From IMG/VR virus record IMGVR_UViG_2737471865_000001, positions 1 to 34,668 of that record: a stretch of 34,668 nt of DNA; one strand, given 5' to 3'. The notes below the pieces were generated by a model. That model saw nothing but the letters and a program-made list of their open reading frames with translations, did no database searches and was not told where the DNA came from. Both the position numbers and the translations under genes were made by a program. This DNA is from a virus (Duplodnaviria > Heunggongvirae > Uroviricota > Caudoviricetes). Positions 3,726-11,341 of the stretch are shown in pieces (the stretch's first letter is position 1; each line of letters begins with the position of its first letter).

Positions 3726-3844
3726 AACGCCTCCAGTTGTTTCTTTGCTGCTCTGATTAATTGTTTAACTCGGCGTGATAATTCAGATTCGTGCGGGTAG
3801 AAAGCGGACATGACGCCGCTACCCGCTAAAATATATTCATTCAT
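3710..3844 (-). CDS. cIII-like small protein (44 aa), not in the ORF track
   Basis: My translation: MNEYILAGSGVMSAFYPHESELSRRVKQLIRAAKKQLEALCAMK. Resembles the lambda cIII N-terminal and central region (M.YAIAG...ESLLERITRKLR) from memory. Start overlaps the HNH stop as TAATG. Confidence 0.4.
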   Translation of the reverse strand: MNEYILAGSGVMSAFYPHESELSRRVKQLIRAAKKQLEALCAMK

Positions 3845-4356
3845 TATTTGCTCCTGTAGAATTCGCCGTGATGCTTTCTGGCAAAGTCGCAGTAAGCTTT
3901 TTTGGCATCTTCTAATTCATTAAAGTACCCTAGATGTTTTTTCTTTCCGTTTAATTTCCCATAGGCAGCCCACTTTCTACTTTCCTTCTTCCATGTGACT
4001 CCTTTGCAACCTGATTTGTTGAGGGTGTTTATTTTACTATTCATTGAATTCTGTGAGTAAGTTGCAAGCCTCAGATTGCAAATTCTGTTATCTGTCTTAA
4101 TGCCATTTATATGGTCGATAATACCTTCAGGCTCAACACCGAAAGTGATAATCCATGCAAGTCTATGTGCAGCATAGTGTCTTCCGTTAATGAAAATCCT
4201 TAAGTAGCCGCTTGTTGTTATTGTTCCGGCAGTTCCACCTATCTTCCTTGCTCCATAAGATTTTAGCCATGTGAACTCACCAGAAATAGGGTTATATTTG
4301 ACAACATTATTAATCTCACTTAGGGAAATTAATTCAAGAATCTTTATAAATGCCAT
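3844..4356 (-). CDS. HNH homing endonuclease with AP2-type DNA-binding domain
   Basis: HNH_3-type motif GIIDHINGIKTDNRICNLRLATYSQN followed by an AP2-like GVTWKKESRKWAAYGKLNGKKKHLGYFNELEDAKKAY. AT-rich coding sequence. The track start is TTG at 4369..4371; ATG at 4354..4356 with an AGGA RBS is more likely. Confidence 0.8.
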   Translation of the reverse strand: MAFIKILELISLSEINNVVKYNPISGEFTWLKSYGARKIGGTAGTITTSGYLRIFINGRHYAAHRLAWIITFGVEPEGIIDHINGIKTDNRICNLRLATYSQNSMNSKINTLNKSGCKGVTWKKESRKWAAYGKLNGKKKHLGYFNELEDAKKAYCDFARKHHGEFYRSK

Positions 4357-4437
4357 TTTATATCCTATCAACTGCGTTCATTAATCAGCGTTTACGCTCA
4401 TGAATAAACACCTCTCGTGAAGCGTTATTGTTATGCA

Positions 4438-4466
4438 TATAAAAAAGCCCTCACATTGGAGGGCAA
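4438..4466 (-). terminator. rho-independent terminator (minus strand) upstream of the HNH gene
   Basis: Hairpin GCCCTC-acattg-GAGGGC (4447..4464), followed on the minus strand by TTTTTT. Confidence 0.6.
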
Positions 4467-4600: not shown

Positions 4601-4801
4601 TCAGGCAGCCTTGTTGTTCTGTTTACCAAGTTCTCTGGCAATCATTGCCGTCGTTCGTATTGCCCATTTATCGACATATTTCCCATCTTCCATTACAGGA
4701 AACATTTCTTCAGGCTTAACCATGCATTCCGATTGCAGCTTGCATCCATTGCATCGCTTGAATTGTCCACACCATTGATTTTTATCAATAGTCGTAGTCA
4801 T
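4601..4801 (-). CDS. ral: restriction-alleviation protein Ral
   Basis: 66-aa Cys-rich protein MTTTIDKNQWCGQFKRCNGCKLQSEC... matching lambda Ral as I recall it, in the expected position between N and cIII. Confidence 0.6.
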   Translation of the reverse strand: MTTTIDKNQWCGQFKRCNGCKLQSECMVKPEEMFPVMEDGKYVDKWAIRTTAMIARELGKQNNKAA

Positions 4802-4983
4802 ACGGATAGTCCTGGTATTGTTCCATCACATCCTGAGGATGCTCTTCGAACTCTTCAAATTCTTCTTCCATATCTAACCTCAAATAAGTGGTTTGCTGCC
4901 TAATTTCATTTTCTGGCGACCAACACAAGTCACACCCATTTCACTGCGTGGCTTGCGGTAGTAAATTAGATTTGTTCAGACAA

Positions 4984-5006
4984 TAAAAAACCCACCGAAG
5001 TGGGCT
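4984..5006 (-). terminator. rho-independent terminator (minus strand, tL1-like)
   Basis: Hairpin CCCAC-cgaa-GTGGG (4991..5004), followed on the minus strand by TTTTTTATTG; immediately after the stop of the 114-aa gene. Confidence 0.6.
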
Positions 5007-5349
5007 ATGACCATTTTTTATTTGGATTTCGTTGGTGAGCGTGATTAACAACTCTGTGCATTACATCCTCATATTTTTCATCTTCAATTTTTTCGACATC
5101 GCGAGGAAATGGTGTTGCTAATGCTTTGTCAACTTTGTCCATTGGTTCTTCATTAATTTTATATTCAGGACCGTCATCTATAGCATTAAATCCAGGTGTT
5201 ACACCGTTTTTTAATGCATATGCTATCCTTTTTTCCCATCTCGCTATTCTCCTCCTGTCTCGAGATGTAAGACCTCTATCAGATACTTTTCTGTTTTGTC
5301 CGCGGTCAGGATTAACATAAATAGTCTTTTTCACCATAAGCATACTCAA
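5005..5349 (-). CDS. hypothetical hydrophilic protein (114 aa) between N and ral
   Basis: ORF whose stop region overlaps the N start codon as ATGA; no recognisable domain. Occupies the position where lambda carries sieB-region accessory genes. Confidence 0.5.
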   Translation of the reverse strand: MSMLMVKKTIYVNPDRGQNRKVSDRGLTSRDRRRIARWEKRIAYALKNGVTPGFNAIDDGPEYKINEEPMDKVDKALATPFPRDVEKIEDEKYEDVMHRVVNHAHQRNPNKKWS

Positions 5350-5651
5350 TAAGCACCGTACGGTAGTTTACTGTACAATTTTATTTTTTGGACTGCATGT
5401 ATTTTGTTTCCTAATGGGTTTGAATCTTTGTAATAAATACTTCTATTTTTTCGAACGACTTCTTCTTTCTTCTTGCAGCAAAGGCTTCCTAGTGATGCTG
5501 CTTTGTCTGCTCTGACGCAACCAGAGAGCTTTAGCGCAATTTTTCGCGCCAGTGCTTCATTACTGCGTCGCTCGGCAATAAGTTCTGCTCTGCGAGCTTT
5601 GTAGCGGCTTTTTGCCGTACCTTTGGATTCTTTCCAGACAATGGTTACCAT
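5346..5651 (-). CDS. N: N-like transcription antiterminator, phage-21 type
   Basis: Arginine-rich motif GTAKSRYKARRAELIAERR matches the phi21 N RNA-binding peptide from memory. ATG at 5649..5651 is preceded by AAGGAG. Sits immediately downstream of PL and nutL. Confidence 0.8.
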   Translation of the reverse strand: MVTIVWKESKGTAKSRYKARRAELIAERRSNEALARKIALKLSGCVRADKAASLGSLCCKKKEEVVRKNRSIYYKDSNPLGNKIHAVQKIKLYSKLPYGAY

Positions 5652-5761
5652 GATGGTCTCCTTTAAGTGGCTTTGGCGCATGACGCGTCGAGGTGCTTAT
5701 CTTCTCGATCGCTGTCTTGCAGCTGCAATTCGCGCCATCCCCAAAACCACTCAAGTTCTGG

Positions 5762-5801
5762 TCTCAACGGTTAGGTTGAGAGTCCGTCGATGTTAAAGAG
5801 C
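5762..5801 (-). promoter_or_regulatory. nutL: boxA plus boxB hairpin
   Basis: On the transcript strand, GCTCTTTAACA (boxA-like; plus-strand 5791..5801) is followed by the hairpin UCUCAAC-CUAACC-GUUGAGA (5762..5781). The loop CUAACC is the same as in the nutR hairpin. Confidence 0.65.
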
Positions 5802-5847
5802 CTGCCAATCTGTTCCGTTTGGCTTCCAGCGTCCTGCTGATGGCTTA

Positions 5848-5876
5848 AATTTAAGACTTCTTAATTTATTGGTCAA
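5848..5876 (-). promoter_or_regulatory. PL promoter with overlapping OL operator
   Basis: On the minus strand: TTGACC, 17-nt spacer, TAAATT. Overlaps the operator-like palindrome ATTTAAGACTTCTTAAT, which resembles the OR sites. Confidence 0.6.
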
Positions 5877-5940
5877 GTGCATTTTTGAAGAAAACTTAAT
5901 TTTATGGGCGTGAATTTAGTTTGTCTTTGATTTTTAACGG

Positions 5941-5966
5941 GAAATAAAAAAAGGGGCGAAAGCCCC
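5941..5966 (-). terminator. rho-independent terminator after c2
   Basis: Hairpin GGGGC-gaaa-GCCCC (5953..5966), followed on the minus strand by a T7 run; directly abuts the c2 stop. Confidence 0.75.
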
Positions 5967-6617
5967 TTAAGGAAGGTTTGCTAGCTTGGCATCAACGACA
6001 ACGCCAATGATTTTACAGTTCCCATTGATTTCAATCATTGGGTATTGTGGATTGAGTGGTTTCAGGAATTTTCTACCGGCATCAATAACTAACTTTTTGA
6101 ATGTCGCCTCGTTTTCTCCTTCAAGTTTGGCGACTACCAGCTTTCCATTACGTGGTTCGACTTCTGGGTCGACGAGAATAATCATCCCCTCAGGAATACT
6201 CAGTCCTGCCGGGGCAGTCATTGAATCGCCTTTAACGTCGAGCCAAAAAGAGTCTTCAGAACAATCTACCGTTGTGTCGTACCAGTTATCTATTGCACGC
6301 CTATGATATGGCTCTACAGCTTCCATCCAACATCCTGCGCTTACCCAACTAATTAGAGGATACGAACCTCTTGGATCATGCCTGCTGTGATAGGCAATGT
6401 TTGAAAGACTATCCTCTCCTTTCAACAGGTAATCAGGGGAGCACTGCAAAGCCTTGGCTAAGGCCAATAGGTTTTCGCCATTGGGCTCAGTTTCAGATCG
6501 CTCCCATTGGGAAATAGCAACATTAGACACGCCAACCATCTTGCCAAGGGCAGCCTGCCTAATCTTGAGTTCTTTTCTGCGAGCGCGAATACGCTCACCC
6601 ATCAGTTGTGTATTCAT
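5967..6617 (-). CDS. c2: prophage repressor C2 (CI-type; HTH plus LexA-like S24 peptidase domain)
   Basis: 216 aa: N-terminal HTH (QAALGKMVGVSNVAISQWER) and C-terminal autocleavage domain (GDSM...VVAKL). Essentially matches P22 C2 as I recall it. Confidence 0.93.
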   Translation of the reverse strand: MNTQLMGERIRARRKELKIRQAALGKMVGVSNVAISQWERSETEPNGENLLALAKALQCSPDYLLKGEDSLSNIAYHSRHDPRGSYPLISWVSAGCWMEAVEPYHRRAIDNWYDTTVDCSEDSFWLDVKGDSMTAPAGLSIPEGMIILVDPEVEPRNGKLVVAKLEGENEATFKKLVIDAGRKFLKPLNPQYPMIEINGNCKIIGVVVDAKLANLP

Positions 6618-6697
6618 AGTTAAGACATCTTAAATAAACTTGACTTAAGATTCCTTTGGTGGATAATTTAAGTGTTCTTTAATTTCGGAGCGAGTCT
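6618..6697. promoter_or_regulatory. OR region: PR/PRM divergent promoters with three operator-like sites
   Basis: PR has TTGACT (6640..6645) and GATAAT (6662..6667). Operator-like imperfect palindromes: AGTTAAGACATCTTAAAT (6619..6636), a TTAAGATTCCTT-containing site, and ATTTAAGTGTTCTTTAAT (6667..6684). Confidence 0.7.
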
Positions 6698-6883
6698 ATG
6701 TACAAAAAAGATGTTATTGACCACTTCGGAACCCAGCGTGCTGTTGCTAAAGCACTAGGCATTAGCGATGCAGCAGTCTCTCAGTGGAAAGAAGTTATCC
6801 CAGAGAAAGACGCCTATCGATTGGAAATCGTTACAGCTGGCGCCCTGAAGTATCAAGAAAGTGCTTACCGCCAAGCGGCATAA
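6698..6883 (+). CDS. cro: Cro repressor (P22 type)
   Basis: 61 aa MYKKDVIDHFGTQRAVAKALGISDAAVSQWK..., HTH protein directly downstream of PR; matches P22 Cro from memory. Confidence 0.92.
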   Translation: MYKKDVIDHFGTQRAVAKALGISDAAVSQWKEVIPEKDAYRLEIVTAGALKYQESAYRQAA

Positions 6884-6889
6884 GCAAAT

Positions 6890-6930
6890 TGCTCTTTAAC
6901 AGTTCTGGCCTTTCACCTCTAACCGGGTGA
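6890..6930 (+). promoter_or_regulatory. nutR: boxA plus boxB hairpin (phage-21 type)
   Basis: TGCTCTTTAACA (6890..6901) followed by the hairpin TCACC-TCTAACCG-GGTGA (6913..6930); matches the phi21 boxB sequence UCACCUCUAACCGGGUGA from memory. Confidence 0.7.
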
Positions 6931-6998
6931 GCAAACATCAGCGGCAAATCCATTGGGTGTGCCGCTATAACTCAATATCAATATAGGAAAATTAACAA

Positions 6999-7295
6999 AT
7001 GGCACAAGCAAGCTACAGCAAGCCAACACAGCGAGAAATTGATCGCGCTGAAACTGATTTACTCATCAACCTGTCAACGCTTACCCAGCGCGGTCTGGCA
7101 AAGATGATTGGCTGTCATGAATCGAAGATAAGCAGAACGGACTGGAGATTTATTGCTTCGGTCTTGTGTGCTTTCGGAATGGCATCAGACATCAGTCCGA
7201 TTAGCAGGGCTTTTAAGTATGCGCTTGATGGACTCACCAATAAAAAACGCCCGGCGGCAACCGAGCGTTCTGAACAAATCCAGATGGAATTCTGA
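6999..7295 (+). CDS. cII: CII-type transcriptional activator
   Basis: 98 aa; C-terminal [19 protein letters not shown] matches the lambda CII C-terminus; HTH in the centre ([16 protein letters not shown]). Confidence 0.85.
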
Positions 7296-7328
7296 GGTCA
7301 TTACTGGATCAATCCACAGGAGTCATTA

Positions 7329-7478
7329 TGACAAAACAACTCAGTCCTTACCAGGACAAAATTCACAAACACATACTACGTGATCGCTTCCTGTCCAGCT
7401 TCAAGCAGCCTGGTCGATTCCGGGCTGAGTTGGAAAAAGTGAAGCTGATGCAGAAGGAGAAAGGTCATGAGTAATCTT
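7329..7478 (+). CDS. hypothetical small protein (49 aa), not in the ORF track
   Basis: My translation: [55 protein letters not shown]; its stop overlaps the O start. Confidence 0.35.
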
Positions 7479-8434: not shown

Positions 8435-11341
8435 ATGACGCCAAGTGAACTTAGCGATCTGCTTTGGGTGCAGGTTGACAGGGTGGCTCCGCACCTGTTG
8501 CCAAACGGCAAGAAAGAGGGGCATGAGTGGGTTGCCGGTAACGTCAACGGTGACAAGGGAAACAGCCTTAAGGTCAACCTTAGCGGCAAGAAAAAATGGG
8601 CTGATTTCGCTGAGGGAGACGGCGGTGACATGCTTGATTTGTGGATGGCATGTCGTGGAATTAACCTGCATCAGGCGATGCATGAAGCGAAAGCATTTCT
8701 CGGAATCAAGGATGACGATCACCATTTCGATGCCAAACGTGAGAAGAAATTCTCCAGACCTGATCGCAAGAAGATCGCCCGCTACGTTACCAGAACAGAA
8801 TCCCATCTTGAGTACCTGCAATCGCGTGGTATATCGCCAGAAATCGTAAAGCGCTACGAGGTTGTCAGCGGCAAGGTGTGGAATGGAGAGCGGGAACTGG
8901 ATGCTCTGGTGATTCCGTACAAACGCGATGGTGAGTTGTTGCAGGTCAAGCGAATCAGCACTGAGCGCCCGGACGGGAAGAAAGTCATTATGGCAGAAGG
9001 TGATTGCGAACCTTGTCTGTTCGGATGGCAGGCTCTGGACGCTGGCGTGAGGGCGGTTGTGCTTTGCGAAGGCGAAATTGATTGTATGAGCTATGCGCAA
9101 TACGGCATCTCGGCGTTATCCGTGCCGTTTGGTGGCGGGAAAGGCGCTAAGCAACAGTGGATTGAGTTTGAGTATCACAACCTCGACAGGTTTGAGGAAA
9201 TATTCATCTCGATGGACGTTGATGATGTTGGTCGTGAAGCCGCAAGGGAAATCGCAAGCCGACTCGGTGAACATCGTTGCCGTCTTGTTACTCTGCCGTA
9301 CAAAGACATCAACGAATGCCTGATGAACGGTGTTACCGAGGATGAAATCTGGCAGTACATTGGCACGGCATCCTACTTCGATCCTGAAGAACTCTACAGC
9401 GCGCGAGAGTTTTACCATGACACTATCAACGCTTTCTACGGCAAGCAGCAGTATCTGTTTAATCCACCGTGGGAATCTCTGGCAGATAAATTCCAGTTCC
9501 GTGAGGCAGAATTGACGCTGGTCAATGGTGTGAACGGTCACGGAAAAGCCTGTCCACTTGATGAACCAATTCTGCTCGCTAATGGTGAATGGACTACTCA
9601 CGGGGATGTAAAAATTGGCGATCAGGTGGCATCAGTAGACGGCAATCCGTCAACTGTCACCGGGATATTCCCGCAGGGTGTTAGAGATGTTTACCGAGTC
9701 ACATTTGAAGATGGTCGTTATGTTGATTGCGCAGGCGATCACCTATGGGAGGTCACTAGTCGTGGATTCACGAAAGGCGAGAAGCGCCGCGTGATAGACA
9801 CCTTCGAGCTGAAACGGTTGAGTGAAACGAAGAGGCACAAAAATGGCGTCAGGATACCCGAAATAACTGGTGACTTTGGCGACCACTCAGAGCCATTAGC
9901 ATGGGTTATCGGCTCCCTTCTCGGGGATGGTAGTCTTAGCAATGGGAGCGTGAAGTTTTCAAACGTCGAGCCATACATGATCGAGCGTATGAAGGCTGAA
10001 CTGCCTGATTACAACTTCTCTGGAGATGGTAAGGACTGGCTGATATCAACGGCGCGTGGTCAGGTAAATCCACTCATGGAGACCCTGCGAGTTTATGGAC
10101 TAATGGGGTGCACAGCAAAAAACAAATTCATCCCTCGTGTGTTTTTTTCCGCAAACAAATCAACGCGTATAGGAATGCTGTGTGGTCTGCTTGAAACGGA
10201 TGGTTATGTCGAGAAGGATGGAACGCTTGTTTTTTCCTCAGCAAGTGAAGAACTGCGTAATGGGGTTGTTCAACTGGTTAACTCACTCGGCGGTTCATGC
10301 CGGACGCGAGTTAAAACTGGCGTGACATACACATACAAGGGCGATAAGCGGCATGGGATGGATTCATATGAGGCAAGGATACGACTGACAAGGGAAATCA
10401 GGGAGGCCATCCGTTCACCACGACTCAATGGCAGATTAACTGCGCATCGATTCGAGGGGTGTGGGGTATTCGTCAGGAATGTTGAAAAAATCGGCAATGC
10501 AGAATGCTTGTGTATCATGGTCGATCACCCTCGCCACCTGTATGTAACCAGAGGATATGTGGCAACGCATAACACCGAGGTTGTCGGGCATATGGCACTT
10601 GAGGCAATGCGTCAGGGTGTGAAGACGTGCATCGCGTCACTTGAGCTGAAGCCTGGTATTCTCCTTAAGCGCCTTACCCGTCAGGCGACGTGCTGCAAGA
10701 TGCCGCCAGTGCTGGAAATTGACTCTGCATTTAAATTTTATGACGAAAGACTTTGGGTGTTTGGTCTGACCGGAACGGCGAAAGCCGACAGGCTGATCGA
10801 AATATTCGACTACGCTCGCCGCCGATACGGCATCCAGTTATTCATCATCGACAGCCTGATGAAATGCGGCATAGGTGACGATGATTATAACGGGCAGAAG
10901 GCGTTTGTTGACTCGATTTGCGACTTCAAAAACAAAACAAACTCCCACGTCATTCTCGTTACTCACTCGCGAAAAGGAGACAGCGAAGAAAAACCAACCG
11001 GGAAAATGGACGTAAAAGGCTCTGGAGCGATAACAGACCTGACAGACAACCTTTTCATCATCTGGCGTAACAAGGCTCGCGAGAGAGCGTTACAGAGAGT
11101 TCAGAGTGGTGAAAAGATGTCAGAGAAGGACGAACAGCTACTGGCATCTCCGGCATCTGTTTTGATGCTTGAAAAACAACGTAACGGCGAAGGTTGGGAA
11201 GGTGGTGTCCCGTTGTTCCTTGACGAGCAATCGCACCAGTTCCTGCAACTTGAATCAGGGTCGCCATATAGCTACATCGCTAATATGCCGAAATCGGAAT
11301 ATGACGAGGCGTGGCGACAGGAAAACGTGACGGAGTATTAA
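8435..11341 (+). CDS. bifunctional DNA primase / SF4 (DnaB/T7 gp4-like) helicase, interrupted by an in-frame intein
   Basis: 968 aa. N-terminal primase region with TOPRIM motifs (VLCEGEIDCMS; ISMDVDDVGRE). P-loop NGVNGHGKA at residues 365..372. C-terminal helicase motifs LFIIDSLM (Walker B), HVILVTHSRKGD and KGSGAITDLTDNLFII align with T7 gp4 helicase motifs. Residues 373..713 are an intein. Confidence 0.88.
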   Translation: MTPSELSDLLWVQVDRVAPHLLPNGKKEGHEWVAGNVNGDKGNSLKVNLSGKKKWADFAEGDGGDMLDLWMACRGINLHQAMHEAKAFLGIKDDDHHFDAKREKKFSRPDRKKIARYVTRTESHLEYLQSRGISPEIVKRYEVVSGKVWNGERELDALVIPYKRDGELLQVKRISTERPDGKKVIMAEGDCEPCLFGWQALDAGVRAVVLCEGEIDCMSYAQYGISALSVPFGGGKGAKQQWIEFEYHNLDRFEEIFISMDVDDVGREAAREIASRLGEHRCRLVTLPYKDINECLMNGVTEDEIWQYIGTASYFDPEELYSAREFYHDTINAFYGKQQYLFNPPWESLADKFQFREAELTLVNGVNGHGKACPLDEPILLANGEWTTHGDVKIGDQVASVDGNPSTVTGIFPQGVRDVYRVTFEDGRYVDCAGDHLWEVTSRGFTKGEKRRVIDTFELKRLSETKRHKNGVRIPEITGDFGDHSEPLAWVIGSLLGDGSLSNGSVKFSNVEPYMIERMKAELPDYNFSGDGKDWLISTARGQVNPLMETLRVYGLMGCTAKNKFIPRVFFSANKSTRIGMLCGLLETDGYVEKDGTLVFSSASEELRNGVVQLVNSLGGSCRTRVKTGVTYTYKGDKRHGMDSYEARIRLTREIREAIRSPRLNGRLTAHRFEGCGVFVRNVEKIGNAECLCIMVDHPRHLYVTRGYVATHNTEVVGHMALEAMRQGVKTCIASLELKPGILLKRLTRQATCCKMPPVLEIDSAFKFYDERLWVFGLTGTAKADRLIEIFDYARRRYGIQLFIIDSLMKCGIGDDDYNGQKAFVDSICDFKNKTNSHVILVTHSRKGDSEEKPTGKMDVKGSGAITDLTDNLFIIWRNKARERALQRVQSGEKMSEKDEQLLASPASVLMLEKQRNGEGWEGGVPLFLDEQSHQFLQLESGSPYSYIANMPKSEYDEAWRQENVTEY
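9551..10573 (+). mobile_element. intein (341 aa) with LAGLIDADG homing-endonuclease domain, inserted in the helicase Walker A loop
   Basis: Begins with Cys immediately after GHGKA (CPLDEPILLANGEW, Hint block A). Two LAGLIDADG-type motifs (VIGSLLGDGSL and LCGLLETDGYV). Ends YVATHN followed by Thr as the +1 extein residue. Flanking exteins together form a contiguous helicase domain. Confidence 0.85.

Follow-up and report, generated by a model that had tools for sequence, protein, structure and literature searches.

The early-control region of a P22-like Escherichia coli phage sequence is very probably the native imm21 block of coliphage 21

Sequence comparison of the DNA examined here (hereafter the window, the whole stretch of 34,668 nt that was analysed, from IMG/VR record IMGVR_UViG_2737471865_000001) points with high probability to the native imm21 early-control region of coliphage 21, located in an E. 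coli phage or prophage of P22-like (Lederbergvirus) type, with the N/nut system and the repressor descending together from an ancestor resembling phage 21. The original prediction had described a phage-21-type N/nut system wrapped around a P22-type c2/cro core. This is not so, as positions 5739-6960 are those of phage 21 but for one base; no such hybrid is present here, because the repressor and Cro are 100% identical to those of phage 21 and there is no step in identity at the nut sites. The region is the textbook phage 21 arrangement, already known, and not a new hybrid. The “P22-type” repressor and Cro are phage 21’s own alleles, which amounts to an annotation correction, and nothing in the window speaks for a new swap of N/nut and repressor modules. 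Apart from its proper annotation, the region itself has little significance.

A megablast query with window positions 5300-7300 against a phage collection gave matches at 98.6-99.6% with Escherichia phage 21 (OL657228), lambda imm21, DE3, HK629, mEp235 and Kapi1. The OL657228 record annotates nutL, boxA-L, pL, OL1-3, cI, the OR operators, cro, boxA-R, nutR, tR1 and cII, and the order N - nutL - pL/OL - cI - OR/pR - cro - nutR - cII is the same in the window, in phage 21, in lambda imm21 (OM418625) and in prophage DE3 (EU078592). Positions 5429-7335 are colinear with phage 21 at 98.6% nucleotide identity over 1.9 kb. In a three-way alignment, a single 1-nt indel (poly-A length) separates the two within the 1222 nt of 5739-6960, and the 50-nt bins across this interval present 98-100% identity, all but one of them 100%; the level of identity does not change at nutL or at nutR. 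Of 5426 complete E. coli genomes, 228 contain the block from N to cII at a coverage of at least 80%, and the same region is present, again at 80% coverage or more, in mEp235, Kapi1, DE3, lambda imm21 and HK629. Elsewhere the window resembles P22, with portal, coat, terminase and DNA-transfer genes, and the replication genes downstream of cII differ from those of phage 21. A laboratory origin from DE3 or lambda imm21 was considered and rejected, the rest of the window being a P22-like phage with other replication genes. No record covering the whole window was found; the best phage records cover approximately 48-74% of the window halves.

The prophage repressor gene is located at 5967-6617 (minus strand) and encodes a 216 aa protein with the HTH_3 and Peptidase_S24 domains (Pfam). 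It has 100% amino acid identity with phage 21 cI when the latter is translated from the same ATG, and 93.5% with P22 c2. The cro gene at 6698-6883 (plus strand) encodes a 61 aa protein of the Pfam P22_Cro family, which is 100% identical to phage 21 Cro and 98.4% (60/61) to P22 Cro. Both proteins match P22 structures (1ADR and 1RZS). The match to P22 on which the original prediction relied is thus real at these amino acid values, with the qualification that phage 21’s own cI and Cro match completely. The cII activator at 6999-7295 (plus strand) is a 98 aa protein with the Phage_CII domain (Pfam) and is 96% identical to phage 21 cII. The pL promoter (TTGACC, a 17-nt spacer and TAAATT) is located at 5848-5876 on the minus strand and overlaps OL1; the annotated pL start of phage 21 maps to about position 5841. 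A promoter pattern for pR lies on the plus strand, with TTGACT at 6640-6645 and GATAAT at 6662-6667. The operators were mapped from the phage 21 annotation at 100% identity, with OL1 at 5849-5866, OL2 at 5884-5901 and OL3 at 5913-5930 on the left and OR3 at 6618-6635, OR2 at 6643-6660 and OR1 at 6666-6683 on the right. An intrinsic terminator is predicted at 5951-5968 (minus strand), just 3' of the repressor gene, where a terminator is annotated in phage 21. Concerning the deposited phage 21 record, cI is annotated there (OL657228, 2038-2610) as a 190 aa protein starting at Met27, which would leave out helix 1 and a portion of the HTH domain. The CDS as deposited is probably too short at its start, because the full 216 aa frame, beginning with the P22-like MNTQLMGER, is uninterrupted in both phage 21 and the window (5967-6617) and does not differ between them.

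Repressor, Cro and operators belong to a family common to phage 21 and P22 immC (BK000583), and by the identities given above the allele here is that of phage 21. Compared with P22, the operators have no mismatch in OL1 and OR1, one each in OL2 and OR3, two in OR2 and four in OL3, while the DNA-binding domain of the repressor differs from that of P22 c2 (PDB 1ADR, 2R1J) at 3 of 68 residues, none of them in the helix-turn-helix. We infer an imm21 immunity specificity for this repressor from its identity to phage 21. Botstein and Herskowitz are said to have reported in 1974 a common immunity specificity of phage 21 and P22 immC. A search of the literature at hand did not find an explicit statement of this shared specificity; the identical helix-turn-helix and the near-identical operators are the computed support that would speak for it.

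The gene of the N antitermination protein is located at 5346-5651 (minus strand), outside the segment to which the original prediction had been assigned, and encodes a basic protein of 101 aa starting with MVTIVWKESKGTAKSRYKARRAELIAERR. Residues 11-29 form the arginine-rich motif (ARM) GTAKSRYKARRAELIAERR, and N is identical at 22 of 22 positions to the phi21 N peptide of the solved structure (PDB 1NYB, chain A), so that the phi21-type peptide announced beforehand is present. Up to residue 57 it does not differ from phage 21 N. Over its full length it has 75.5% identity with phage 21 N, 21% with P22 gp24 and 20% with lambda N, and it scored 18.4 bits against Pfam N_peptide (PF25694), below the gathering score of 27.9. 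The boxB hairpin of nutL is located at 5762-5781 (minus strand; UCUCAAC-CUAACC-GUUGAGA, a 7 bp stem) and is identical to the “nutL” stem_loop annotated in OL657228, while that of nutR is located at 6913-6930 (plus strand; UCACCU-CUAACC-GGGUGA) with a stem of 6 pairs. The CUAACC loop, which is the phi21 boxB loop in 1NYB (PMC12550061), is present in both, as had been predicted; the hairpin drawn previously for nutR is real, except that its 8-nt loop was wrong, because a U-G pair closes the loop and leaves the CUAACC hexaloop. Each boxB is preceded at a short distance by a boxA with the core GCTCTTTA. For nutL, the boxA (GGCTCTTTAACA) is at 5791-5802 on the minus strand with the core at 5794-5801, and for nutR (TGCTCTTTAACA) at 6890-6901 on the plus strand with the core at 6891-6898. 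Both sites occupy their canonical positions, nutL between pL and N and nutR between cro and cII. Stretches of 61 nt (nutL) and 66 nt (nutR) agree at every position with the sites annotated in phage 21 (OL657228), which bears out their assignment as phi21-type. Alignment of N and boxB with phi21, P22 and lambda gave a match to phi21, and clustering with P22 gene 24 and the P22 nut sites was not seen. These comparisons support the placement of N and both boxB elements in the phi21 specificity class and not in that of P22 or lambda.

Could the two hairpins be chance inverted repeats, or terminator stems, with no function in antitermination? They are short, and a scan of the whole window at the Rfam gathering thresholds matched no family, the nut/boxB elements here having no curated model. 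Taken as isolated hairpins they fold more stably than shuffles (nutL -7.3 kcal/mol, z = -5.8; nutR -7.1 kcal/mol, z = -2.85), and the significance is confined to the isolated hairpins, since in a context of 56-61 nt the folding energies do not stand out from those of shuffles (z = -0.11 and -0.46). Their number and placement make a chance origin hardly credible. Across the whole 34.7-kb window, nutL and nutR are the only hairpins that combine a CTAACC loop with a stem of 5 pairs or more, while mononucleotide shuffles contained 0.15 of them per sequence on average, and 20 of the 2000 shuffles (about 1%) had at least two. Both hairpins lie at a fixed distance 3' of a boxA in the nutL and nutR positions, both are identical to the annotated phage 21 sites, and they are conserved together with the ARM of N in phages VT1-Sakai and PA28 despite unrelated repressors. 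A terminator role is further contradicted by inspection of the sequence, where no T-run follows either of them.

An alternative of more substance, yet also very improbable, is a recent recombinant in which a phi21-type N, nutL and nutR were joined in this genome by two crossovers to a P22-derived core of c2, cro and operators. The resemblance of the repressor and Cro to their P22 counterparts, in sequence and in structure, and the P22-like character of the portal, coat and terminase genes would fit it, as would the fact that homology to P22 ends in the boxA-boxB spacers on both sides, where the similarity of P22 to phage 21 drops from about 83% to about 40%. Against it, the core is that of phage 21 in protein and lies 1 nt from phage 21 in 1.2 kb, identity to phage 21 runs past both nut sites without a step, and the combination was already present in phage 21, isolated in the 1950s. 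The distance from P22 is also large: positions 5787-6901 have 83.6% nucleotide identity with P22, an alignment of c2, cro and operators has 927 of 1113 nt identical, and c2 alone differs from the repressor gene of the window at 123 of 651 nt, with 96 synonymous against 14 non-synonymous codons. Differences that are mostly synonymous point to alleles that diverged long ago and stayed under purifying selection, and not to a recent donation from P22, and on these comparisons the recombinant is already refuted as a recent event. The window has neither the P22 immC allele itself (83.6% nt) nor flanks with gene 24 and P22-type boxB elements. Its homology to P22 immC covers the repressor, Cro and the operators (identical in OL1 and OR1) and boxA is shared, but P22 differs in its N protein (gp24, at the 21% identity given above) and in its boxB elements, GCGCUGACAAAGCGC and CCGCCGACAACGCGG, which have pentaloops and are unrelated to those of the window; the lambda boxB sequences are likewise unrelated.

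Inheritance of the whole imm21 block therefore stays the preferred reading, and the wider idea contained in the original prediction, that the N/boxB pair segregates as a module apart from the repressor and operators, has to be placed elsewhere. It holds across phages, as an old event that splits the 21 and P22 lineages, while this genome presents no new exchange. The Stx phages VT1-Sakai and PA28 both have a phi21-type N-terminus of N and a nutL with the CUAACC loop, and the nutR loop is CUAACC in VT1-Sakai and CUAACA in PA28. Their cores are unrelated to that of the window, with a repressor at 38.5% and a Cro at 18% identity in VT1-Sakai and at 23.5% and 25%, respectively, in PA28. The C-terminus of N differs in VT1-Sakai, whereas PA28 has that of the window; the VT1-Sakai record already reads “similar to bacteriophage phi-21 N”. 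Phage mEpX1 (JQ182727) has the same N and nutL as the window, followed by a nun-like ORF, with a different repressor (38.6% identical). In this comparison the boxB-ARM specificity pair travels independently of the repressor/operator core and of the C-terminal domain of N. The modularity of N/nut against the repressor in lambdoid evolution is a correct and long-known principle; the structure of the imm21 N-boxB pair has been solved, and the relation of the imm21 region to P22 immC belongs to the history of lambdoid mosaicism. As a separate observation, the nutR boxB of PA28 (minus strand, near 1743) combines the CUAACA loop with an N ARM that differs from phi21 at one position (RRAELI to RREELI), a possible natural variant of the RNA-peptide pair.

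By its identity to phage 21, the region would work according to the established lambdoid model. Repressor bound at OL1-3 and OR1-3 would shut off pL and pR. Upon induction or infection, pL would transcribe nutL and then N, while pR would transcribe cro and then nutR. The arginine-rich helix of N would bind the CUAACC hexaloop of boxB on the nascent RNA and boxA would recruit the host NusB/NusE, and together with NusA and NusG this would render RNA polymerase resistant to termination, so that neither tR1 nor the pL-operon terminators would stop it. Near 6977 the window has the same sequence as the tR1 annotated in phage 21, and within the pL operon terminators were recognized at pattern level at 4989-5006 and 4447-4464. 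The contact of this N with RNA polymerase could differ from that of phage 21 N, because its last ~40 residues are those of another allele.

The mosaic joints proper of the window lie inside N and after cII. The phi21 ARM and NusA-binding N-terminus of N is found joined to three C-terminal types, with the switch around residues 57-63, namely a lambda/21 type, an HK022-leader type (this window, mEpX1 and PA28) and a P22 type (VT1-Sakai), and these C-terminal segments (5346-5480 of the window, minus strand) are unrelated or diverged. A modular build has likewise been described for the N-type protein gp24 of P22 and L (phage L paper, PMC8022706). Directly downstream of N, where phage 21 has no such insert, the window harbors nun, an HK022-type transcription termination factor (5005-5343, minus strand), with 107 of 109 aa identical to PDB 6ALG chain N. 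Its ARM is identical to 1HJI at 26 of 26 positions, and the C-terminal RNA-polymerase-arrest segment (...NPNKKWS) is present. Inside the 3' end of N, positions 5370-5398 (minus strand; -35 at 5393-5398, -10 at 5370-5375) are identical to the nun promoter, and identity to the HK022 annotation suggests a promoter role for them; an intrinsic terminator is predicted after nun at 4989-5006 (minus strand). The interval 4967-5463, which spans the last ~38 codons of N, the nun promoter, nun and the terminator, has approximately 98% identity with the nun region of HK022. Beyond it, at 4880-4966 (minus strand), the 3' end of an N gene of phage 21 type has been left as an orphan (IYYRKPRSEMGVTCVGRQKMKLGSKPLI*; 28 codons and a stop), and next follows ral (4601-4801, minus strand; 97.9% identity to phage 21). 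This orphaned end identifies the cassette at 4967-5463 as an insertion or replacement within a phi21-type N gene: carrying its own N-type C-terminus, it was recombined into the 3' third of the ancestral gene. The variant C-terminus is a genuine N allele, because the same allele is present in PA28 without nun.

The same N allele is found, at 99-100%, in mEp235 (JQ182731), mEpX1 and vB_EcoP_Kapi1 (MT813197), and mEp235 and Kapi1 also share the imm21-type region at 98.9-99.6% nucleotide identity. In mEp235 the ORF after N bears the annotation Nun or Nun-like, and in mEpX1 it is described by its similarity to the HK022 termination factor, while the homologous ORF of Kapi1 is annotated as hypothetical. 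The arrangement of N next to Nun is already on record through mEp235, and through the HK022 Nun similarity noted for mEpX1, and any novelty might lie only in how it is read in evolutionary and functional terms. The boxB bound by HK022 Nun is that of lambda (PMC5386594), and the phage’s own phi21-type boxB would not be expected to be a Nun target. As judged from its genes, the phage encodes an antiterminator of phi21 specificity together with a termination factor directed at lambda boxB. Tentatively, and with more doubt than confidence, we suggest that N is a chimera of the phi21 ARM and NusA-binding part with a C-terminus from DNA like the HK022 nun leader, that the nun leader of HK022 is a relic of an N gene, and that some phages pair N antitermination on their own nut sites with Nun arrest on lambda-type nut sites. 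If true, N and Nun, both of which use the same Nus machinery, would be combined in natural phages. A separate proposal, that putL lies within the N relic, was prompted by a tblastn hit between N residues 22-101 and the putL region of HK022 and was dropped, as solid nucleotide homology starts only ~117 nt upstream of nun, downstream of putL.

Two further genes of the window were recorded. The ORF at 8435-11341 (plus strand) encodes a 968 aa Toprim primase/helicase interrupted by a 341 aa intein (Hint and LAGLIDADG) at about 9551-10573, which is apparently inserted at the helicase P-loop motif (GVNGHGKA|C...HN|T). Alleles with the intein (96-99%) are found in the Stx2 phages 24B and Min27 and in phiKp_30, while alleles lacking it (66% coverage, 97.5% identity) are found in mEp043 and Sf101. 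Finally, a 175 aa ORF at 3844-4371 (minus strand), located in the pL operon, contains the HNH_3 and AP2 domains and is typical of a free-standing homing endonuclease.
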